Origin: an uncultured Candidatus Saccharibacteria bacterium
GTDB taxonomy: Bacteria > Patescibacteriota > Saccharimonadia > Saccharimonadales > JAGQNK01
Direction of reading: 5' to 3'
Assembly: GCA_964636435.1 (NCBI GenBank)
Contig: CAZWRS010000001.1
Location: 11,345-75,344, forward strand
DNA length: 64,000 bases
In this document: piece by piece, positions 38,289-51,880 of the stretch
Numbering within the stretch: position 1 is the stretch's first letter
How the letters are laid out: each line of letters begins with the position of its first letter
The notes under the pieces: model-generated
Told to the model about the DNA's origin: nothing
Databases searched by the model: none
The model's input: only the letters and a program-made list of their open reading frames with translations
Program-made: the position numbers and the translations under genes

Positions 38289-38645
38289 TTAAGCGGCTGT
38301 GATGCGCCAATACTTTCCTGCTCGTACTGCAGTGACGTCGCGGTTTATACCCGCGTATTCCAAAAGGTGCTGCTCGATGACCACGCGACCCTGCTTTTGA
38401 TCAAGCTCAGCCTCGGTCTTGCCTGCCCTGAACTTGACGTTCAGGTCCGCTGTCCGCTCGTCAAGAATGTTGCCTTGGAGCTCTGGCTCCATTAGCTCAT
38501 CCCAAACGGACTTCGGGTACAGGTGCAGATAGTTTTGGAATCCACGTGTCAACACTACTCCGGAAGCGAACTCGGCTCTCAGCTCAGTTGGAATCGTCAA
38601 CCGACGCTTATCGTCAAGCTTCCTCTCGAAATAGTCTACTGCCAC
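38289..38645 (-). CDS. mraZ: Transcriptional regulator MraZ
   Basis: Two SpoVT/AbrB-like halves with LDDKRRLTIP and LDQKQGRVVI (DxxxR-type) motifs; first gene of the dcw cluster; GTG start. Confidence 0.85.
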   Translation of the reverse strand: MAVDYFERKLDDKRRLTIPTELRAEFASGVVLTRGFQNYLHLYPKSVWDELMEPELQGNILDERTADLNVKFRAGKTEAELDQKQGRVVIEQHLLEYAGINRDVTAVRAGKYWRITAA

Positions 38646-41947: not shown

Positions 41948-42748
41948 CTATTGGCTCAGCCTATTCAGTGCTGTCATATCTGCTTCCGTTAGTTCAAGGT
42001 CAAATACCTGGAAATTACTTGTGATGCGTTCATAGCTGGTTGCTTTTGGTATCGGAACGGCGTCGTGCTGTATACTCCAGCGCAGCAAAATCTGTGCCGG
42101 CGTTTTCTGGTAAGTCTTCGCAAGCCGCCCAATGGTCACATCGTCGCCCCACGCCATTTGTGCGAGCGGACTATACGCTTCGATGATTATTCCTTCCTCG
42201 GCGCAATAATCGAGTACCGGCCTTTGCTGACGGTAATTGAACGGGTGTAGCTCAATCTGATTTACGGCCGGCACGAGATGCGCAAACTCTTTTAGCTCCA
42301 TGAGGTGTTTCACTGAGAAGTTCGACACGCCGATATTACGCACTCGCTCCTCACGATAGAGTTCTTCCATCTCTTGCCAGGATTCTTTCCAGGCTTCATG
42401 AGCTGGCCAGTGAATGAGATACAAATCGACATAGTCAAGCCCCAAGCGCTCTAACGAATTTTCATAAGCAGCTCGTGTTCGCATCAACCCAAGATCGGTC
42501 CGCCACACCTTGGTCGTAATAATAATCTCTTCTCGCGGCACCCCGGTCGAGCGCACCGCTGCGCCAACACTCTCTTCGTTCATGTAAATTGCTGCGGTAT
42601 CAATAAGTCGATAGCCAGTCGCTAGTGCAGCCTTGGTGGCTTGCAAAGCTTCATTGCCATTTTCAAGCCGCCACGTACCAAATCCAATCCTCGGCAGTAG
42701 CAGCCCCGTATTTAGCCGGACATGTGTGTCTTCAACGGTCAGTTGCAC
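41948..42748 (-). CDS. Aldo/keto reductase (2,5-diketo-D-gluconate reductase-like)
   Basis: GFGTWRL, IDTAAIYMNE, LYLIHWP, GVSNF, IPKA near the C-terminus. Confidence 0.9.
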   Translation of the reverse strand: MQLTVEDTHVRLNTGLLLPRIGFGTWRLENGNEALQATKAALATGYRLIDTAAIYMNEESVGAAVRSTGVPREEIIITTKVWRTDLGLMRTRAAYENSLERLGLDYVDLYLIHWPAHEAWKESWQEMEELYREERVRNIGVSNFSVKHLMELKEFAHLVPAVNQIELHPFNYRQQRPVLDYCAEEGIIIEAYSPLAQMAWGDDVTIGRLAKTYQKTPAQILLRWSIQHDAVPIPKATSYERITSNFQVFDLELTEADMTALNRLSQ

Positions 42749-42834
42749 AAGTCTTAAACCCCCACTTACCCAGCCACAGTCTAGGCCACAAAGAGGTCCA
42801 CGTAAGTTAAATAAACCACTAAATCACCGAGAAG

Positions 42835-43428
42835 TTAACTATCGCCCGGCTTTGCGGACTTCCGCCTGCGGCGGTCGTAGTAGGCCAACTCACGCTTTTG
42901 CTGATCGATACGGTCGATATACGAATCAAATGCGTTATACAGGCTAGAATAGTGACCGGTGGGAGCAAGGATTTTCAGCAGCTTGCCCTGCTGCTCTAAG
43001 TATTCAACCAGCGAATAGAAATCCCCATCGCCAGACACGATGACGGCTTTATGGTAATTCTTGAGCTCTTTCATAGCCCATAGCACCAAATCGGCGTCAA
43101 TATTACCCTTAGTTTGTTTTTTATCTTCTTCGTTTTCTGGCTTGCCGTCACCGTCGGTTTTTTCGACGTGTTCGGGGCGCGGCCGGGTCATATCGAACGT
43201 TGGCTTCAGCACTACCATGTATCCTGCTTCGTGAAGCTGTACGTACATATCTTCAAATTCCGGCACATAACCGATAAACATGAAAGCCTTGGTTACTCCG
43301 TACTTTTCGGACAGATGCTCGCGAAACTTCCGCCAATCGATTTTCCAACCGAGGCGCTGCACGCTAATATTCAAATTCTGGCTGTCAATAAAAGCGTATA
43401 CTTGCTTTTGCCTACGGCGACGTCTCAT
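42835..43428 (-). CDS. NYN (LabA-like/PIN-like) domain protein
   Basis: YAFIDSQNLN near the N-terminus, DADLVLWAM, and IVSGDGDFYSLVEYL, which fits the NYN acidic motifs. Arg-rich termini. Confidence 0.75.
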   Translation of the reverse strand: MRRRRRQKQVYAFIDSQNLNISVQRLGWKIDWRKFREHLSEKYGVTKAFMFIGYVPEFEDMYVQLHEAGYMVVLKPTFDMTRPRPEHVEKTDGDGKPENEEDKKQTKGNIDADLVLWAMKELKNYHKAVIVSGDGDFYSLVEYLEQQGKLLKILAPTGHYSSLYNAFDSYIDRIDQQKRELAYYDRRRRKSAKPGDS

Positions 43429-43448
43429 ATCCCCAGTGTATCACTTCT

Positions 43449-43829
43449 TCACCTATGGCCCGTAATACAAATCACGTTGCCGCTCGGGTCCTTAAACCAA
43501 GCAGCCCTGCGCTTAGTGCTCAAAGACTGCTTGGCTTTCTTGGCAATTCTCATCGGGGCATTATCGTGCCTCTCAAACTGCAGCCCCCGCGCTTCGAGAG
43601 TCTGAAATAACCTTTCTGGCTGATGGACGATCCAGATTGCCGCTGGAGTTTTACTCGTACCAGCAAGATCTGATTGATACAGTGCAAACCGTGTGTTGCC
43701 GGCACGATACCATACACCATTCTCATCTTCGTCAATAATATCCATGCCGAGCGTTCTGCCATAAAAATCTATCGACTTTTTCAAGTCCTTGACGGGAATG
43801 GTTGCGTACAGCGGTATGTCGCTCAGCAT
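43449..43829 (-). CDS. VOC (glyoxalase/bleomycin-resistance) family protein
   Basis: YATIPVKDLKKSIDFYGRTLGM and AWFKDPSGNVICI are typical beta-alpha-beta-beta-beta module signatures. Confidence 0.7.
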   Translation of the reverse strand: MLSDIPLYATIPVKDLKKSIDFYGRTLGMDIIDEDENGVWYRAGNTRFALYQSDLAGTSKTPAAIWIVHQPERLFQTLEARGLQFERHDNAPMRIAKKAKQSLSTKRRAAWFKDPSGNVICITGHR

Positions 43830-43932
43830 AAGCTGATTCCTCGAGTGTGAGCCATTAGCGGTGGCCTATTGTCAATAATACACTTATTTATCAATCCTGC
43901 CAGCTAATTTTTTCTCTGAGGCTGACAAAATT

Positions 43933-45468
43933 TTAATCTGCTGGTTGGCCTGTCAGCGCGTCCTCACCGAAATGCTTCTTTATCCGAGCCCGAATTGAGC
44001 CGGGATGTCGGCCAAAAACTTCCGTCAGTTCCCTGACGGTTACCTCCCTCCCGTCGCTAAAAAGCTCAACGAGGCGCCTGTCATCAGCCTCACTCCATGG
44101 CTTATAGGCGTTCGGGTATTTTTTCCGCATTTTATCGAGCTTATCAGTCCACGAGTTGGATGTTACGGCGGTCTCTTCACGTTTTCGTGCTCGTTCAGCT
44201 GCTTGGTCACGCAAATACTCGAACCGTACGGCGTCCCTGGCCGCCCGACTACGTAAGTCTTCATCAATTGCCAGCGCCTCGGAACTGACTCGCAGTGCCA
44301 TCTGGTTGATACCAGCCAAGCTCAATGTCTCCAGGCTACGTACGCGACTGAGTGCCACGTAACCCATACCCTCAACAAATGCTTTCCTGAGGTCTATTCG
44401 TGCAGCATCTAGCGTCATACCTTGGCTTTTATGGACAGTGATCGCCCAAGCCAGCCGCAGCGGAATCTGACTGAGTGCTGCGCGTTTTTTGTCACCGTCG
44501 CGAAGTTCCCACGCCTCGGGCGCAATAGTTATTTTTCGTCCATCTTTGAGCTCAATTATTGGATAGCCTGTTTCTTTTTCGAAGCCAGCAACAACCCCGA
44601 GCGAGCCGTTGACGTACTTCTTCTCAGGATTGTTGCGAATACACATAACGAGCGCACCTTCCTTCAGCACCACCTCCTCCTGCGCCAGACACGACCGCTT
44701 GAGCGTTTCAACATAACTGGACTTGCCGCTCGTGCTCATGGTGTAAACATGAACATCTCCGTCCAATTGGCGCAACCGCTCCTGGTTAATGGCGTCCACG
44801 TCCACATTAGTGGTATGCAACTCGGTAGCCTCCTCAAAAGGATCATACGCACCGCGCCGCGCCAGCAGCGCTTCAGCGTGACGGCGGCGAATATCACCGG
44901 CGCGCATAGCATTGAGAATTTCCAGGAACGCATTGTCGTTTTGCCGATGCTGCTCAGTTAAGTAGCACACGACCGGGTCGAGCTCTTGCCAAACGTTGGC
45001 ATTGATTATAAAACTGCCTGGCCGGCTATCATTTCGAGTCACCGGTGGCAGTTGAAAAAAGTCTCCACACAGCACCACTTGGAGGCCACCGAACGGCGCG
45101 TCTACCTCACGGACTTTACGGGCAATTTCATCGACCATATCTAGCCGATAATCGTGCAGCATTGATACTTCATCGATAATCAGTACATCTGTTTTCCGGA
45201 TCGTCTCCCGTCGACCCTTGAGCAGGTGTTCATGAAAGTTGCGGGGTAACTCGTCGTGAATACCGATGCCGCTCCAGGCATGGATCGTATTACCATTCAG
45301 GTGTGTCGCCGCCAGACCGGTCGTGGCGGTGACTGACACGTGCCTGCCTTCCTGCTTGGCTCGTCGGATAAACTCATTGAGCACATACGTCTTACCAGAC
45401 CCGGCTGGTCCAGTTAGCAGCACACTTTCGCCTGCCCCCATGATTTCGAGTGCTAAAGTCTGATCCAT
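43933..45468 (-). CDS. Pif1/RecD-like SF1 helicase with C-terminal HTH-like tail
   Basis: Walker A GPAGSGKT, TGLAATHLNGNTIHAW, Walker B IIDEVSML, LCGDFFQLPPV, TVHKSQG and YVALSRV motifs. About 90 extra C-terminal residues. Confidence 0.85.
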   Translation of the reverse strand: MDQTLALEIMGAGESVLLTGPAGSGKTYVLNEFIRRAKQEGRHVSVTATTGLAATHLNGNTIHAWSGIGIHDELPRNFHEHLLKGRRETIRKTDVLIIDEVSMLHDYRLDMVDEIARKVREVDAPFGGLQVVLCGDFFQLPPVTRNDSRPGSFIINANVWQELDPVVCYLTEQHRQNDNAFLEILNAMRAGDIRRRHAEALLARRGAYDPFEEATELHTTNVDVDAINQERLRQLDGDVHVYTMSTSGKSSYVETLKRSCLAQEEVVLKEGALVMCIRNNPEKKYVNGSLGVVAGFEKETGYPIIELKDGRKITIAPEAWELRDGDKKRAALSQIPLRLAWAITVHKSQGMTLDAARIDLRKAFVEGMGYVALSRVRSLETLSLAGINQMALRVSSEALAIDEDLRSRAARDAVRFEYLRDQAAERARKREETAVTSNSWTDKLDKMRKKYPNAYKPWSEADDRRLVELFSDGREVTVRELTEVFGRHPGSIRARIKKHFGEDALTGQPAD

Positions 45469-45518
45469 AGTCTATCTAGTATAGCTGACCGTACTGACAC
45501 CCAGGTAAGCGGCGGGTA

Positions 45519-46556
45519 CTACAAGACCTGCTTCAGCAGCTCTTCTTCGTCTGCCTCTTTGATGAGTTTCTTGCTCTTGATTTCGTAGCGCAGCCCCGTT
45601 AGCGGCGACTCCATATAATCATCGTTGAGCAAGTTCACAAATTTATTTAGATCTTTGTCATCCATTAAAATGATTGCGCCCTGATCATCCAACATCAGCT
45701 CGATACCGATATCGTCAGCATGCTCTAGCAACTTCTCCTGCGTGGTGGCCGTCGGATCGACTTTTTGCAACTTGTTGACGAGTGCCTTCTTGCCCTTCAC
45801 TATCGCTTCGAGCGACTCTTCCTCATAGCTCAGCTTGAAGATCTCGCTGATCATTTTCATCTTCTGCACCGCAATACCGTACTTCTTGGCATTGTAGCCA
45901 AACAGACTATCTAACTTGGCAGGGTTAAAGGCATAGATGTCTTGATCGAGCACTAGCAGCTGATTGTCCGCCGGAATCTGCAGGCTACCGTCAGCATCGA
46001 ATGGCACGAATTTACCGTCCTTCATGAGCCACGCCGTACTGCCTTTCATGAGCGACGAACCAGGCAGACCTTTAATGATGTAGAACGGCTTTTTCAGCTC
46101 TGGATGACTGCAGCGCACCAGCACCCCCTTAATCCGCTTGAAGTCATGCTCCTCTTCTACAAACGGTTCAATCTCTGCCTCTTGCGTCTTGAGCCAGCTA
46201 AGCAGCACCCGGGCGCTGTCGACATTTTTGAGCCGGGTGCGCTGCAGCACCTTACCCTCGGCCTCACCCTCCTCAAACTCGCGCACGATCATCCCCTCTT
46301 CTGCACCTGTCAAAACGTACTCCAGTAAATTATCGATGAGCAGCGGCTCTAGAGTTCGGCGCAAATCCTTACTAACGTTTGTCCTGTACACCACGTAGTT
46401 CTTGTTGAACAGAAACACTTCAATACGCAGCTCTTCTTTAATTGGCACGAGATTATTCGCCCACAGAAACACATCCGATGTTTCGTAGCGCTCCGCCTCT
46501 ACCTCCTGGGCTTCTGCAGATTTTGTTTGTTCAACTGCTACTGAAGGTTCTTCCAC
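45519..46556 (-). CDS. Acidic 345-aa protein, tentatively DUF4868/KwaB-like
   Basis: GTG start with GGAG 9 nt upstream, 50 nt upstream of the helicase on the same strand. The C-terminal NKFVNLLNDDYMESPLTGLRYEIKSKK segment recalls DUF4868-type proteins from memory only. Confidence 0.4.
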   Translation of the reverse strand: MEEPSVAVEQTKSAEAQEVEAERYETSDVFLWANNLVPIKEELRIEVFLFNKNYVVYRTNVSKDLRRTLEPLLIDNLLEYVLTGAEEGMIVREFEEGEAEGKVLQRTRLKNVDSARVLLSWLKTQEAEIEPFVEEEHDFKRIKGVLVRCSHPELKKPFYIIKGLPGSSLMKGSTAWLMKDGKFVPFDADGSLQIPADNQLLVLDQDIYAFNPAKLDSLFGYNAKKYGIAVQKMKMISEIFKLSYEEESLEAIVKGKKALVNKLQKVDPTATTQEKLLEHADDIGIELMLDDQGAIILMDDKDLNKFVNLLNDDYMESPLTGLRYEIKSKKLIKEADEEELLKQVL

Positions 46557-46666
46557 TGTTTATCTCCGTTTTGTCGTATTTAAATGTCGTGATGAATAGT
46601 TACGCAATCAACGAACCCTATTCTACCTGATTCTGTCTCAAATAAATGGTGTAAAATCCGCAAGGC

Positions 46667-47131
46667 TTATTTTCTAAAGGGACGCCACTCTATGCGACCA
46701 TCTTTTCTGAAGTTGACCTCGTCCATAAGTACAAATAAGCTCGGCGTCAGTCGATACATTCGATGGTGGTTCGCTCCGATGATAAAATTTTTATAAAACT
46801 CTCTACCTACGCCATACTTGGACACATACTTTTGCACTACACTCTCGACAACTCCCGCATCCTCGACCTCCTCAGCAATGCCCTCGATTTGTACTCCGAT
46901 AATAGGCTGATCTTGCTTAATGGCAATAGCCGCAGCGACCTTACTGTTACCCATCAACTCCTTGCTATGCCGCCGCGTAGGCCAGCTGAGCCAGTATAAA
47001 TTTAGCTCGTCATCGGCTACGAAATATACCGTACATACCCAAGGCTGATTACCGGCAACCGTTGCTAGCTGCATTGCCTGAGTATCTCCACACATGTATT
47101 GACGGATTTTCTCACCTACTCGATCGTGCAT
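46667..47131 (-). CDS. Pyridoxamine 5'-phosphate oxidase-like FMN-binding split-barrel protein
   Basis: MQLATVAGNQPWVCTVYFVADDELNLYWLS and the general PNPOx-like layout. Confidence 0.65.
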   Translation of the reverse strand: MHDRVGEKIRQYMCGDTQAMQLATVAGNQPWVCTVYFVADDELNLYWLSWPTRRHSKELMGNSKVAAAIAIKQDQPIIGVQIEGIAEEVEDAGVVESVVQKYVSKYGVGREFYKNFIIGANHHRMYRLTPSLFVLMDEVNFRKDGRIEWRPFRK

Positions 47132-47242
47132 ATCTTTCTCTGTACGCTACTTTAATGCAATATTACACGAACACGAAATCAGTCATTATGACCACCGCAA
47201 ATACCCACATCAAAATAACTGTAGTTCGGTATAATATAACCC

Positions 47243-47533
47243 GTGTCAAAGCAGAAAAAGTACTGGTTCAAACGCCGTCGCTACGGCTGGGGCTGGCTGC
47301 CAGTAACGTGGCAGGGCTGGCTGACGGTCGCAGTGTTTTTGGCGCTGTCACTCAGCGCTGCCCGCTTACTGCCGCCAAAGCCTCAGCAGCCGGCAACCAG
47401 CGAGTTGGTGAGCTTTTTAGCCATTCTCTTAGGATTGACAGTCGCCCTGCTAGCTATAGGCTACGCCAAAGGCCCTGCGCCGCGCTGGCGCTGGGGCAAA
47501 AAACCATCAGACACCCCGGATGAAGATTTTTAA
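47243..47533 (+). CDS. Small 2-TM membrane protein
   Basis: 96 aa with KKYWFKRRRYGWGW followed by two hydrophobic helices. One of the few + strand genes on this side. Confidence 0.5.
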   Translation: MSKQKKYWFKRRRYGWGWLPVTWQGWLTVAVFLALSLSAARLLPPKPQQPATSELVSFLAILLGLTVALLAIGYAKGPAPRWRWGKKPSDTPDEDF

Positions 47534-50530: not shown

Positions 50531-51880
50531 CTAACCTTGTACGCTGTCTATAAGCTTTTCGATACCTACTCGCTCTTGCTCAGTTGTGTCACGATCACGA
50601 ATGGTTACCGCGCCATCCTCCAGCGTGTCGAAATCTATGACAACACAGTATGGTGTACCGATTTCGTCCTGGCGGCGATAGCGTTTACCGATATTGCCGT
50701 TGTCGTCCCACATGACATTACCGACGTCTTTCTTTAGCATAGTGTATACTTCGCGGGCTTTTTCTACCAACTCCGGCTTGTTTTTAAGCAGCGGTGATAC
50801 GGCTATGCGGTATGGCGCCAACTCCGGCTTGAGCTTAAGTACCACGCGTTTTTCCCCGTGTACCTCTTCTTCATGATATGCATCTGTCAGGACAGCTAGG
50901 AACATACGGCCGACTCCAACTGATGATTCGATAACGTATGGCAGGAATCGCTCACGCGTAGCATCATCAAAGTACTGTAGATCTTTACCACTGACCCGCT
51001 GATGATTTCCGAGGTCAAAGTCAGTTCGATTATGCGTACCCCACAGTTCCTTAAAACCCTGAGGAAAATTGAAGTAAATATCATGTGCAGCTGCCGCATA
51101 ATGAGCTCGCTCATTCTCTGCATGCTCATGCCACTGCAAATTCTGCTCATCAATACCAAGGCGATCAGTCAAGAACTCCCATGCAAACTCACGCCAGTCT
51201 TCATACGCCTTCCCTTGGTCTTCTGGGCGGATGAAATACTGCATCTCCATCTGCTCGAGCTCACGAACGCGAAAGATAAAATCACGCGGGCTGATTTCGT
51301 TACGAAACGCCTTACCTATCTGAGCAACACCAAATGGTAATTTAGCCCGCATAGTCTCACGAACATTTTCATAGTTAGTAAAGATTGAGCCAGCTGTCTC
51401 TGGGCGCAAATACGCGATTGATGACTCATCCTCTACTGGGCCCACCCAGGTTTTCATCATCATGTTATATGTCCGTGGCTCAGTCAGCGCTTTCTTGCCG
51501 CAAGTCGGACAGGCCTTATCTTTGAGCAGACCTGCCAGCTCTTTTAGGTCGGTAGAATCTGTGCCAGCTAAATGGTCGGCGCGGTGCCGTGCGCCACAAT
51601 TTTTGCAGTCCACCAATGGATCCGTAAAACCAGCCACGTGGCCACTTGCTTCCCAAAGCCGGGGATTTTGGATAATAGCGCCGTCGACACCGAAAATATT
51701 CTCACTTTCGGTAACCATAGCCTTCCACCATTCAGCTTTGATTTTATTAACCAGCTCAACGCCGAGCGGACCATAATCCCAAAAACCAGCCAAGCCGCCA
51801 TATATTTCTGACGCCTGAAAAACAAACCCTCGGCGCTTGCACAGGCTGACAATATCTTCCATTTTTACAGATTCTTTCAT
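50531..51880 (-). CDS. glyQS: Glycyl-tRNA synthetase (alpha2 dimeric, class II)
   Basis: RGFVFQASEIYGG, YLRPETAGSIF, FRNEISPRDFIFRVRELEQME, C-terminal anticodon-binding domain. Confidence 0.95.
   Translation of the reverse strand: MKESVKMEDIVSLCKRRGFVFQASEIYGGLAGFWDYGPLGVELVNKIKAEWWKAMVTESENIFGVDGAIIQNPRLWEASGHVAGFTDPLVDCKNCGARHRADHLAGTDSTDLKELAGLLKDKACPTCGKKALTEPRTYNMMMKTWVGPVEDESSIAYLRPETAGSIFTNYENVRETMRAKLPFGVAQIGKAFRNEISPRDFIFRVRELEQMEMQYFIRPEDQGKAYEDWREFAWEFLTDRLGIDEQNLQWHEHAENERAHYAAAAHDIYFNFPQGFKELWGTHNRTDFDLGNHQRVSGKDLQYFDDATRERFLPYVIESSVGVGRMFLAVLTDAYHEEEVHGEKRVVLKLKPELAPYRIAVSPLLKNKPELVEKAREVYTMLKKDVGNVMWDDNGNIGKRYRRQDEIGTPYCVVIDFDTLEDGAVTIRDRDTTEQERVGIEKLIDSVQG

Follow-up and report, generated by a model that had tools for sequence, protein, structure and literature searches.

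A KwaB-like gene without KwaA lies beside a Pif1-type helicase gene in a conserved chromosomal interval of Saccharibacteria

To understand what a KwaB-like gene may do beside a helicase gene and without the membrane protein KwaA, we analysed a 64,000-nt stretch of DNA from an uncultured Candidatus Saccharibacteria bacterium (contig CAZWRS010000001.1, positions 11,345 to 75,344; hereafter the window), in which four genes follow one another on the minus strand from position 46556 to 42835, separated by gaps of 50, 103 and 20 nt. So far the one role known for KwaB is that of effector in the Kiwa defence complex, which is anchored in the membrane, and the question raised by this locus is what the 345-aa protein encoded by the first of the four genes is, how it is inherited and what it might do with the neighbouring Pif1-type helicase. 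An earlier note on this DNA, made from its letters, had proposed a candidate defence-type module consisting of an acidic DUF4868/KwaB-like protein and the helicase, with VOC and NYN genes alongside. The gene coordinates that it gave were confirmed, and both the helicase motifs and the pattern NLLNDDY..S.LTG..Y...K that it quoted were found in the translations. Our analysis placed the 345-aa protein in an ‘orphan’ clade of the KwaB family that lacks a KwaA partner, and identified Pif1 as the oldest and most persistent, though not universal, neighbour of its gene.

The KwaB-like open reading frame (ORF; positions 45519–46556, minus strand, 345 aa, GTG start) had been likened to DUF4868 by its size, charge and C-terminal pattern, and on this assignment Pfam, PADLOC and Foldseek agree. 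PF16162 (KwaB/DUF4868) matched residues 175–320 of the protein at 44.5 bits (cut-off 26.3), and eight PADLOC KwaB models matched it, the best being PDLC00233 (E=1.4e-11, residues 40–336). With an AF2 model built from 30 orthologues (pLDDT 68, pTM 0.61), Foldseek returned six hits in the PDB at E≤0.001, every one of them a KwaB chain (9mtn, 9mrx, 9nyu), with E values of ~3e-10, a probability of 1.0, 326–343 aligned columns, 13–14% identity and TM-scores of 0.36–0.45; the root-mean-square deviation of the alignments was large, and thus the relative orientation of the domains in the model is uncertain. The NCBIfam KwaB equivalog NF041623 scored 46.2 bits, below its cut-off of 200. Searches of all PDB chains with phmmer (single sequence) and with a 30-sequence hidden Markov model recovered no KwaB even at E≤10, so that the link to KwaB structures was seen by fold search only. 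We take the 345-aa gene, on these comparisons, to be a genuine, deeply diverged and full-length KwaB homologue.

From its N terminus the protein comprises an acidic tail (approximately residues 1–27), an N domain resembling that of KwaB and, at the C-terminal end, DUF4868; it is acidic as a whole, as had been noted (pI 4.84; 64 Asp and Glu residues against 46 Lys and Arg residues). Across orthologues the tail is variable, with a median length of 26 aa and a net charge of −5, and was net-negative in 78 of 79 sequences. In the window it spans positions 46476–46556, ahead of the conserved D(V/I)FxWANN motif, and in 34 of the 79 orthologues it includes a short motif of the form ‘D(I/V)L(A/P)..’ (DILAPE is one instance). 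Invariant basic residues were found in the comparable region of the protein at K140, R141, K143, R148, K162, K224 and K232, which are putative counterparts of the DNA contacts of Escherichia coli KwaB.

Kiwa KwaB forms dimers and combines a Rossmann-like N domain with DUF4868 at its C-terminal end; through DUF4868 it binds single- and double-stranded DNA non-specifically, it brings phage replication forks to a stall, and the four-transmembrane protein KwaA tethers and controls it (bioRxiv 10.1101/2023.02.26.530102). In the E. coli protein DNA is contacted by N134, R142, R167, D169, K187 and R233, and the DNA mimic Gam of phage lambda binds KwaB (bioRxiv 10.1101/2023.02.26.530102). The window protein resembles Kiwa KwaB in its size, in a two-domain architecture that the fold search matched from end to end and in a DUF4868 domain above the Pfam cut-off, and by analogy it would be expected to bind DNA. 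It differs in being 13–14% identical to, and by sequence or profile undetectable from, the solved KwaB chains, in bearing the acidic N-terminal tail, and in its inheritance, which is vertical and highly constrained and not patchy. It differs also in its partner: Kiwa has KwaA, a ~190-aa four-transmembrane protein, adjacent upstream, whereas the window gene has none. The note's statement that no KwaA lies nearby held in both searches that bear on it. PADLOC gave no hit in nine proteins, listed as seven neighbours in the window and three membrane proteins that recur beside the gene in related loci, and tblastn with a Saccharibacteria-type KwaA found no match anywhere in the 64 kb of the window or in the other loci retrieved. 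A small multi-transmembrane ORF on the same strand flanked the gene in three of 82 orthologous loci and was upstream in none.

The KwaA used for this search came from locus L091, which served as the positive control for KwaA detection. This locus has Saccharibacteria-type synteny, and its glycyl-tRNA synthetase (GlyRS) gene is followed by KwaA (PF28043, 183 aa) and a 313-aa KwaB, the two overlapping by 14 nt (L091:6175-8942); this KwaB is 32% identical to the window protein. A second KwaB-family gene lies ~5 kb downstream (L091:14199-15278, 359 aa), is 58% identical to the window protein and is followed by NUDIX and RNase H genes. Since L091 carries both types, the orphan type is a paralogue of bona fide Kiwa KwaB and able to co-exist with it, which is a further difference from the Kiwa protein.

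To establish the distribution of the gene, a single genome was scanned for each GTDB species, and at least 518 stretches of species-representative genomes encoded a KwaB-like relative. Labels were inspected for the best 80 of these; nearly all were Saccharibacteria or Saccharimonadales, at 53–95% identity, and the closest genome match among those listed (95% identical) was labelled uncultured Candidatus Saccharibacteria. Three of the best 80 were labelled otherwise (L009, L042 and L071: Limnocylindria, Limnocylindrales and Acidoferrum), and a match from the protein search, P0019, was labelled Verrucomicrobiae. L009 has the full synteny of the window (Pif1, VOC, NYN, FMN reductase, GH1 and GlyRS), and because it shares this Saccharibacteria gene order its contig is probably mis-binned. 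A homology search with the KwaB-like protein returned 2,064 proteins, the top 120 at 59–93% identity. When 1.84 billion representative proteins were searched exhaustively with a profile, only 328 were found at E≤0.001, the orphan clade appearing as two representatives at ~552 bits followed by graded full-length relatives.

ORFs were then called and clustered across 86 loci, and neighbours were counted in the 54 loci with enough flanking sequence. The interval runs from histidine-kinase-like, response regulator, RecO and GlyRS genes to RNase HI, KwaB-like, Pif1 and NYN, and from there through MBL, AKR, FMN reductase, GH1 and YvcK/CofD to MraZ, RsmH, FtsL-like and FtsI. Its anchors in the window are GlyRS upstream (positions 50531–51880, minus strand) and MraZ, the first gene of the dcw cluster, downstream (positions 38289–38645, minus strand). 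GlyRS was within 10 kb of the KwaB-like gene in 41 of the 54 loci, MraZ in 40, and one or the other in 47; in other loci GlyRS (PF00587/PF03129) adjoins RecO, and the RsmH, FtsL-like and FtsI genes come after MraZ. A metagenome scan revealed a sister chromosomal clade of 80 loci, forming 24 clusters at 90% identity and ~43% identical to the window protein, in which the KwaB-like gene also lies between GlyRS and MraZ. Thus the proposed defence-type island gave way to a vertically inherited interval present in hundreds of Saccharibacteria species, and the flanking genes, whose identities (GH1, AKR, FMN reductase and PNPOx) stood, turned out to belong to this lineage-wide GlyRS-to-dcw interval and not to an accessory setting. 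The interval mixes a stable gene pool with accessory insertions. Fic-domain and zeta-toxin-like genes were seen in it (L086:6833-7216, L087:5920-6303 and L091:10955-11464), and both KwaB types of L091 occupy it.

The median identity to the window protein over the same loci was 75% for MraZ, 61% for NYN, 60% for KwaB-like, 54% for GlyRS, 51% for both Def and Pif1, and 39% for VOC; on this measure the conservation of the KwaB-like protein is equal to or above that of GlyRS. Against the closest relative, L006, synonymous divergence (dS) was saturated for most genes and the non-synonymous divergence (dN) was therefore used alone. The dN of the KwaB-like gene (0.029) was the second-lowest in the neighbourhood after MraZ (0.026), followed by Pif1 (0.070), GH1 (0.083), NYN (0.084), FMN reductase (0.134), YvcK/CofD (0.149) and VOC (0.226). 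The gene is thus under strong purifying selection, and synteny and sequence together mark it as a vertically inherited chromosomal gene of Saccharimonadia, kept in one interval.

Among the 54 loci, Pif1 was within six genes of the KwaB-like gene in 24 and directly adjacent in 15, and NYN was within six genes in 35 and directly adjacent in 14. Both were within six genes in 19 loci and neither in 14, the latter being mostly a group in which the KwaB-like gene has moved beside CorA, SDR and histidine-kinase genes. In the sister clade, among the 13 clusters with adequate flanks, every one had Pif1 within 7 kb, ten of them within 2 kb; RNase HI was within 7 kb in 12, and NYN was near the KwaB-like gene in none. 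The order of the pair is permuted while adjacency is kept (KwaB–Pif1, Pif1–KwaB and forms with inserts), and the spacers between KwaB-like and Pif1 genes in other loci are 10–154 nt. RNase HI is directly upstream of the KwaB-like gene in many loci, with RecO nearby, and L094 (43% identity) carries RNase H, Pif1, a 51-aa ORF and the KwaB-like gene in a wider context of Der, Pth, DprA and SHMT. L088 has Pif1–NYN without a KwaB-like gene within 8 kb.

The pairing with Pif1 therefore recurs far beyond this genome, in the window clade, in the sister clade and in the phage-like locus L095 described below, and the synteny across genomes by which the note had proposed to judge it was found. NYN as a partner survived in part: it is linked in the sub-clade of the window (35 of 54) and absent from the vicinity of the KwaB-like gene in the sister clade (0 of 13), and NYN joined the cluster only in that sub-clade. 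VOC is a passenger inserted between Pif1 and NYN; its membership of the module, which the note had allowed, was rejected on its presence within six genes in eight of the 54 loci, its median identity of 39% and the highest local dN (0.21–0.50).

The helicase gene (positions 43933–45468, minus strand, 511 aa) encodes a Pif1-type SF1B protein matching PF05970 (126.8 bits, E=1.2e-36) and PF21530 (Pif1 2B; 28.1 bits), with Walker A (GPAGSGKT), Walker B (DEVSM), GDFFQLPPV and TVHKSQG motifs intact. Like other members of the Pif1 family, which belongs to the superfamily of RecD and Dda, it has the complete motifs and the 2B/SH3 insert, and it matches Dda-like helicases of phages strongly (228 bits on phrog_325). 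It differs in a lineage-specific C-terminal tail of DNA-binding type, Myb-like/tri-helical at approximately residues 435–505 and matching phrog_323 over 435–499, and in its persistent linkage to a KwaB-family gene. The tails swap among Saccharibacteria, being Myb-like/tri-helical (positions 43933–44270 in the window), HRDC, or HRDC plus Myb-like (swaps are seen, for example, in L005:10314-11990, L067 and L068), and all three types were found beside KwaB-like genes. The top 120 homologues of the helicase were 68–100% identical and 500–563 aa long, and the window helicase is accordingly the lineage's own conserved Pif1. The note had named a housekeeping Pif1 with unrelated neighbours as the outcome that would speak against its module; the helicase is indeed of housekeeping type, but its neighbours are not unrelated.

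The NYN (PIN-like) gene (positions 42835–43428, minus strand, 197 aa, with Arg-rich termini) matched PF01936 at 57.9 bits (cut-off 24.2, E=2.2e-15), and the acidic active-site positions D15, N18, D111, D134 and D136 were at least 95% conserved in 52 orthologues. With this match and these positions it resembles the NYN/LabA-like PIN-fold nucleases, and nuclease activity is predicted; it differs from them in that the window type is linked to KwaB-like and Pif1 genes in one sub-clade only. The VOC/glyoxalase-fold gene (positions 43449–43829, minus strand, 126 aa) matched PF00903 at 43.3 bits (cut-off 20.6, E=5.7e-11). Its scores against NCBIfam equivalogs were all far below the cut-offs, and hence no specific function can be assigned to it.

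The closest relatives outside the chromosomal clades are phage or mobile-element genes in early recombination/replication modules. In L095 (P0254, 35% identity; L095:5027-12559), RecT, YqaJ, exonuclease-like and HTH genes are followed by KwaB-like and Pif1 with a 1-nt gap between the two, and the operon continues with a HerA/DUF87 ATPase and a 2'-5' RNA-ligase-like gene; this Pif1 shares 57% identity with a Pif1 from a Saccharibacteria chromosome and 47% with that of the window. L097 and L105 share the order RecT, YqaJ (uncalled in L105), small HTH protein and KwaB-like; P0252 (36%) belongs to a phage with RecT, SSB, VRR_NUC, terminase and SPP1-type portal genes; and in P0246 (43%), L101 and L102 the KwaB-like gene lies downstream of an FtsK+PD-(D/E)XK gene. 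A more distant relative, P0400 (24%), is a 321-aa DUF4868 protein of a Candidatus Nanosynbacter sp. TM7-087 prophage (L090:3000-16900) with terminase, GP3_package, RusA, YopX and KilA-N genes, and clustering at 90% puts it in a group of 422, of which one bears the label Caudoviricetes; KwaB-like genes are thus carried by phages of oral Saccharibacteria. The phage copies sit just downstream of RecT/YqaJ, where accessory factors such as Gam are usual in RecT–YqaJ and lambda Red-like modules, whereas the window gene is chromosomal with neither RecT nor YqaJ nearby. The phage copies match phrog_11123 (annotated ‘unknown function’), but the window protein does not, and PHROGs held no family for it. 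A siphovirus fragment in BFVD is 40% identical to the window protein (E=4e-20). In a tblastn search of 72,556 plasmids a spurious 48-residue match was the only one, with no plasmid-borne intermediates. A 54.7-kb contig classified as viral (L089/L100, IMGVR_UViG_3300042202_000028) encodes a KwaB-like protein that shares 50% identity with that of the window, with the other window genes not nearby; the contig may be misclassified cellular DNA.

A cultured relative offers functional data on the same genes. In Southlakia epibionticum ML1 the order is SEML1_0262 (RNase HI), 0263 (hypothetical), 0264 (Pif1-type), 0265 (DUF4868), 0266 (GH1) and 0267 (YvcK), with RsmH slightly further on (Wang et al., Cell 2023, PMC10633639). 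ECOD divides SEML1_0264 into P-loop, SH3, P-loop and tri-helical domains, the last at residues 436–505, and the NYN gene lies elsewhere in the genome as SEML1_0084, its orthologous family being flagged in S. epibionticum as a Patescibacteria-enriched core family (PMC10633639). By transposon sequencing SEML1_0264, 0265 and 0084 were all non-essential in co-culture at three of three time points (PMC10633639 Tables S1/S2). The searchable literature held no paper on DUF4868 or KwaB in Saccharibacteria and no association between Pif1 and the KwaB family: DUF4868 is mentioned in four papers, none of them on Saccharibacteria, no listed paper that brings Kiwa together with Saccharibacteria or Patescibacteria takes up the association, and the TM7x phage paper names no such system.

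Taken together, our results lead us to propose that the KwaB-like protein binds DNA and assists Pif1 during replication, recombination or repair, a reading that we give about an even chance of being correct. Like Kiwa KwaB, it would bind DNA; as a cytoplasmic protein it would assist Pif1, target it to its substrates or regulate it. These substrates would be intermediates of replication, recombination or repair, for example stalled forks, DNA ends or, together with RNase HI, R-loops, while NYN would add nuclease activity in some lineages. The DNA binding, the partnership and the cellular process are each put forward as an inference. The location of the phage copies in RecT/YqaJ modules fits a role in DNA transactions. 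More speculatively, the conserved acidic N-terminal tail might be an autoinhibitory DNA mimic, since the DNA mimic Gam binds KwaB.

Several points weigh against this proposal. DNA binding and an interaction between the KwaB-like protein and Pif1 are inferred, and so acidic a protein (pI 4.84) would be an unusual DNA binder; the AF2 model is of moderate quality (pLDDT 68), and the DNA contacts known from E. coli KwaB could not be placed on it. Neither Pif1 nor NYN is nearby in 14 of the 54 window-clade loci, and most of the phage relatives have no adjacent Pif1; on account of these loci and phages, the KwaB-like protein can function where no helicase gene adjoins its own. Gene order inherited within one lineage could explain much of the adjacency, the GlyRS–MraZ interval accepts accessory genes (in some genomes Fic, zeta-toxin and a real Kiwa system), and non-essentiality in co-culture would fit a role in defence equally well.

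Defence is the reading that the earlier note had in view. In that case the KwaB-like protein would bind invader DNA in the cytoplasm and Pif1, with or without NYN, would unwind or degrade it as a KwaA-independent module against phage or other foreign DNA, fixed in the Saccharibacteria core genome and carried also by prophages for superinfection exclusion. The protein is after all a true homologue of a KwaB that blocks phage replication by binding DNA, prophages and mobile elements carry relatives of it, some genomes have Kiwa, Fic and zeta-toxin genes in the interval, and the KwaB-like, Pif1 and NYN genes are all non-essential in S. epibionticum co-culture. Helicase-plus-nuclease pairs are a common theme in defence. 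NYN matches the PADLOC NYN model, and Pif1 matches the PADLOC candidates PDC-S68, PDC-M16A and typeIV_RecD with E values from 1e-15 to 2e-20, but these helicase matches span the generic SF1 core only. The locus itself does not look like a mobile defence island, with its fixed interval, its unremarkable GC content and no PADLOC systems in the tested neighbours; its flanks in the window contain no known defence genes, and it is inherited vertically at a fixed site across the lineage. A conservation at or above the level of an aminoacyl-tRNA synthetase is the opposite of the turnover expected of a defence gene, given the low dN and strong purifying selection. Phage copies lie in recombination/replication modules, not in moron loci, and a non-specific DNA binder without tethering by KwaA would miss the self/non-self safeguard of Kiwa. 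We therefore consider defence unlikely. A related and rather doubtful idea is that the KwaB-like protein and Pif1 form a KwaA-independent system for incoming DNA in the naturally competent, nucleotide-scavenging Saccharibacteria, mirrored on their phages. The chromosomal copy would then bind and process DNA that enters the cell or is foreign to it, in the service of defence or of salvage of DNA taken up, the phage copies would be superinfection-exclusion factors or decoys against host KwaB-type proteins, and the Kiwa effector would be one branch of a broader and older DNA-entry/fork-binding family.

It is also possible, though in our judgement improbable, that there is no functional module: lineage-conserved genes would share an ancestral interval independently of one another, their adjacency would reflect phylogenetic inertia, and the role of the KwaB-like protein would be unrelated to Pif1. 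The whole GlyRS–MraZ interval is indeed syntenic, and GH1, FMN reductase, AKR, YvcK/CofD, Def and PNPOx persist in it too; the 14 loci with Pif1 and NYN both away from the KwaB-like gene, the Pif1–NYN pair of L088, the distant NYN of S. epibionticum and the absence of Pif1 beside most phage relatives all agree with such independence. However, adjacency has outlasted changes in pair order and orientation, the pairing is kept in L094 despite its different wider context and, with both genes homologous to the chromosomal pair, in the L095 operon with its 1-nt spacer, and spacers elsewhere are short (10–154 nt). The likeness to phage genes admits one more explanation, which we regard as very unlikely, namely that an ancestral Saccharibacteria phage or prophage left KwaB-like and Pif1 genes as a domesticated replication/recombination remnant, whose function in the host may no longer be DNA maintenance. 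Relatives on phages and mobile elements at 35–43% identity, the siphovirus fragment at 40%, the 228-bit match of Pif1 to the Dda-like phrog_325 and the 57% identity between the L095 and chromosomal Pif1 proteins would be accounted for, and phage-type relatives match phrog_11123 where the window protein does not. Phages may have acquired the genes from their hosts, however; in the window region, ORF translations and Pfam revealed no further phage genes; and the deep split into two syntenic chromosomal clades argues for long chromosomal residence. The possibility that the KwaB-like protein, Pif1 and NYN replace a missing RecBCD/AddAB was considered as well, and is weakened because S. epibionticum encodes RecJ, ExoVII, UvrD and a UvrD+PD-(D/E)XK helicase-nuclease.

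What is new here is a class-wide KwaB paralogue without KwaA that is among the most constrained genes of its neighbourhood and stands beside Pif1 and RNase HI. The finding suggests a cellular role in DNA transactions for the DUF4868 fold, which Kiwa may have co-opted or from which it may derive, and it provides bacterial Pif1 helicases, whose physiological roles are obscure, with a candidate partner. It bears in this way on the origin of the Kiwa effector and on what bacterial Pif1 helicases do. S. epibionticum is genetically tractable, and because the adjacent SEML1_0264 and SEML1_0265 both tolerate insertions the proposed partnership is directly testable there.

The remaining features of the locus are minor. 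All four ORFs have hundreds to thousands of homologues of matching length and, against L006, a saturated dS with a dN of 0.03–0.08 for KwaB-like, Pif1 and NYN and 0.23 for VOC; because of these many length-matched homologues and the low dN despite saturated dS, they are real genes and not chance ORFs. No terminator was predicted inside the 50-nt spacer between the KwaB-like and Pif1 genes (positions 45469–45518, minus strand). The promoter and terminator scan of positions 42500–47400 gave predictions not above shuffled controls and reported nothing in this spacer; co-transcription of the two genes seems plausible. Rfam and tRNA scans detected no tRNA or non-coding RNA in the region or within 20 kb. 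The flanking AKR, FMN reductase and PNPOx genes were identified by Pfam, and a 421-aa flanking ORF as GH1 by its tblastn match to genes precomputed as PF00232, with no Pfam call of its own. The GC content that the note had seen as patchy was 0.475–0.539 per kb in the region, inside the 0.449–0.587 of the whole window, and a compositional island was rejected on this ground. A lone 96-aa ORF, hydrophobic and rich in Trp and Arg, is predicted on the plus strand amid minus-strand genes (positions 47243–47533), and matched neither Pfam nor PADLOC. Between ~38 and 52 kb nearly all long conserved ORFs have minus-strand orientation. Almost every 1-kb bin shows a negative GC skew, and the cumulative skew drops steadily across positions 1–64000; the window probably lies within a single replichore.

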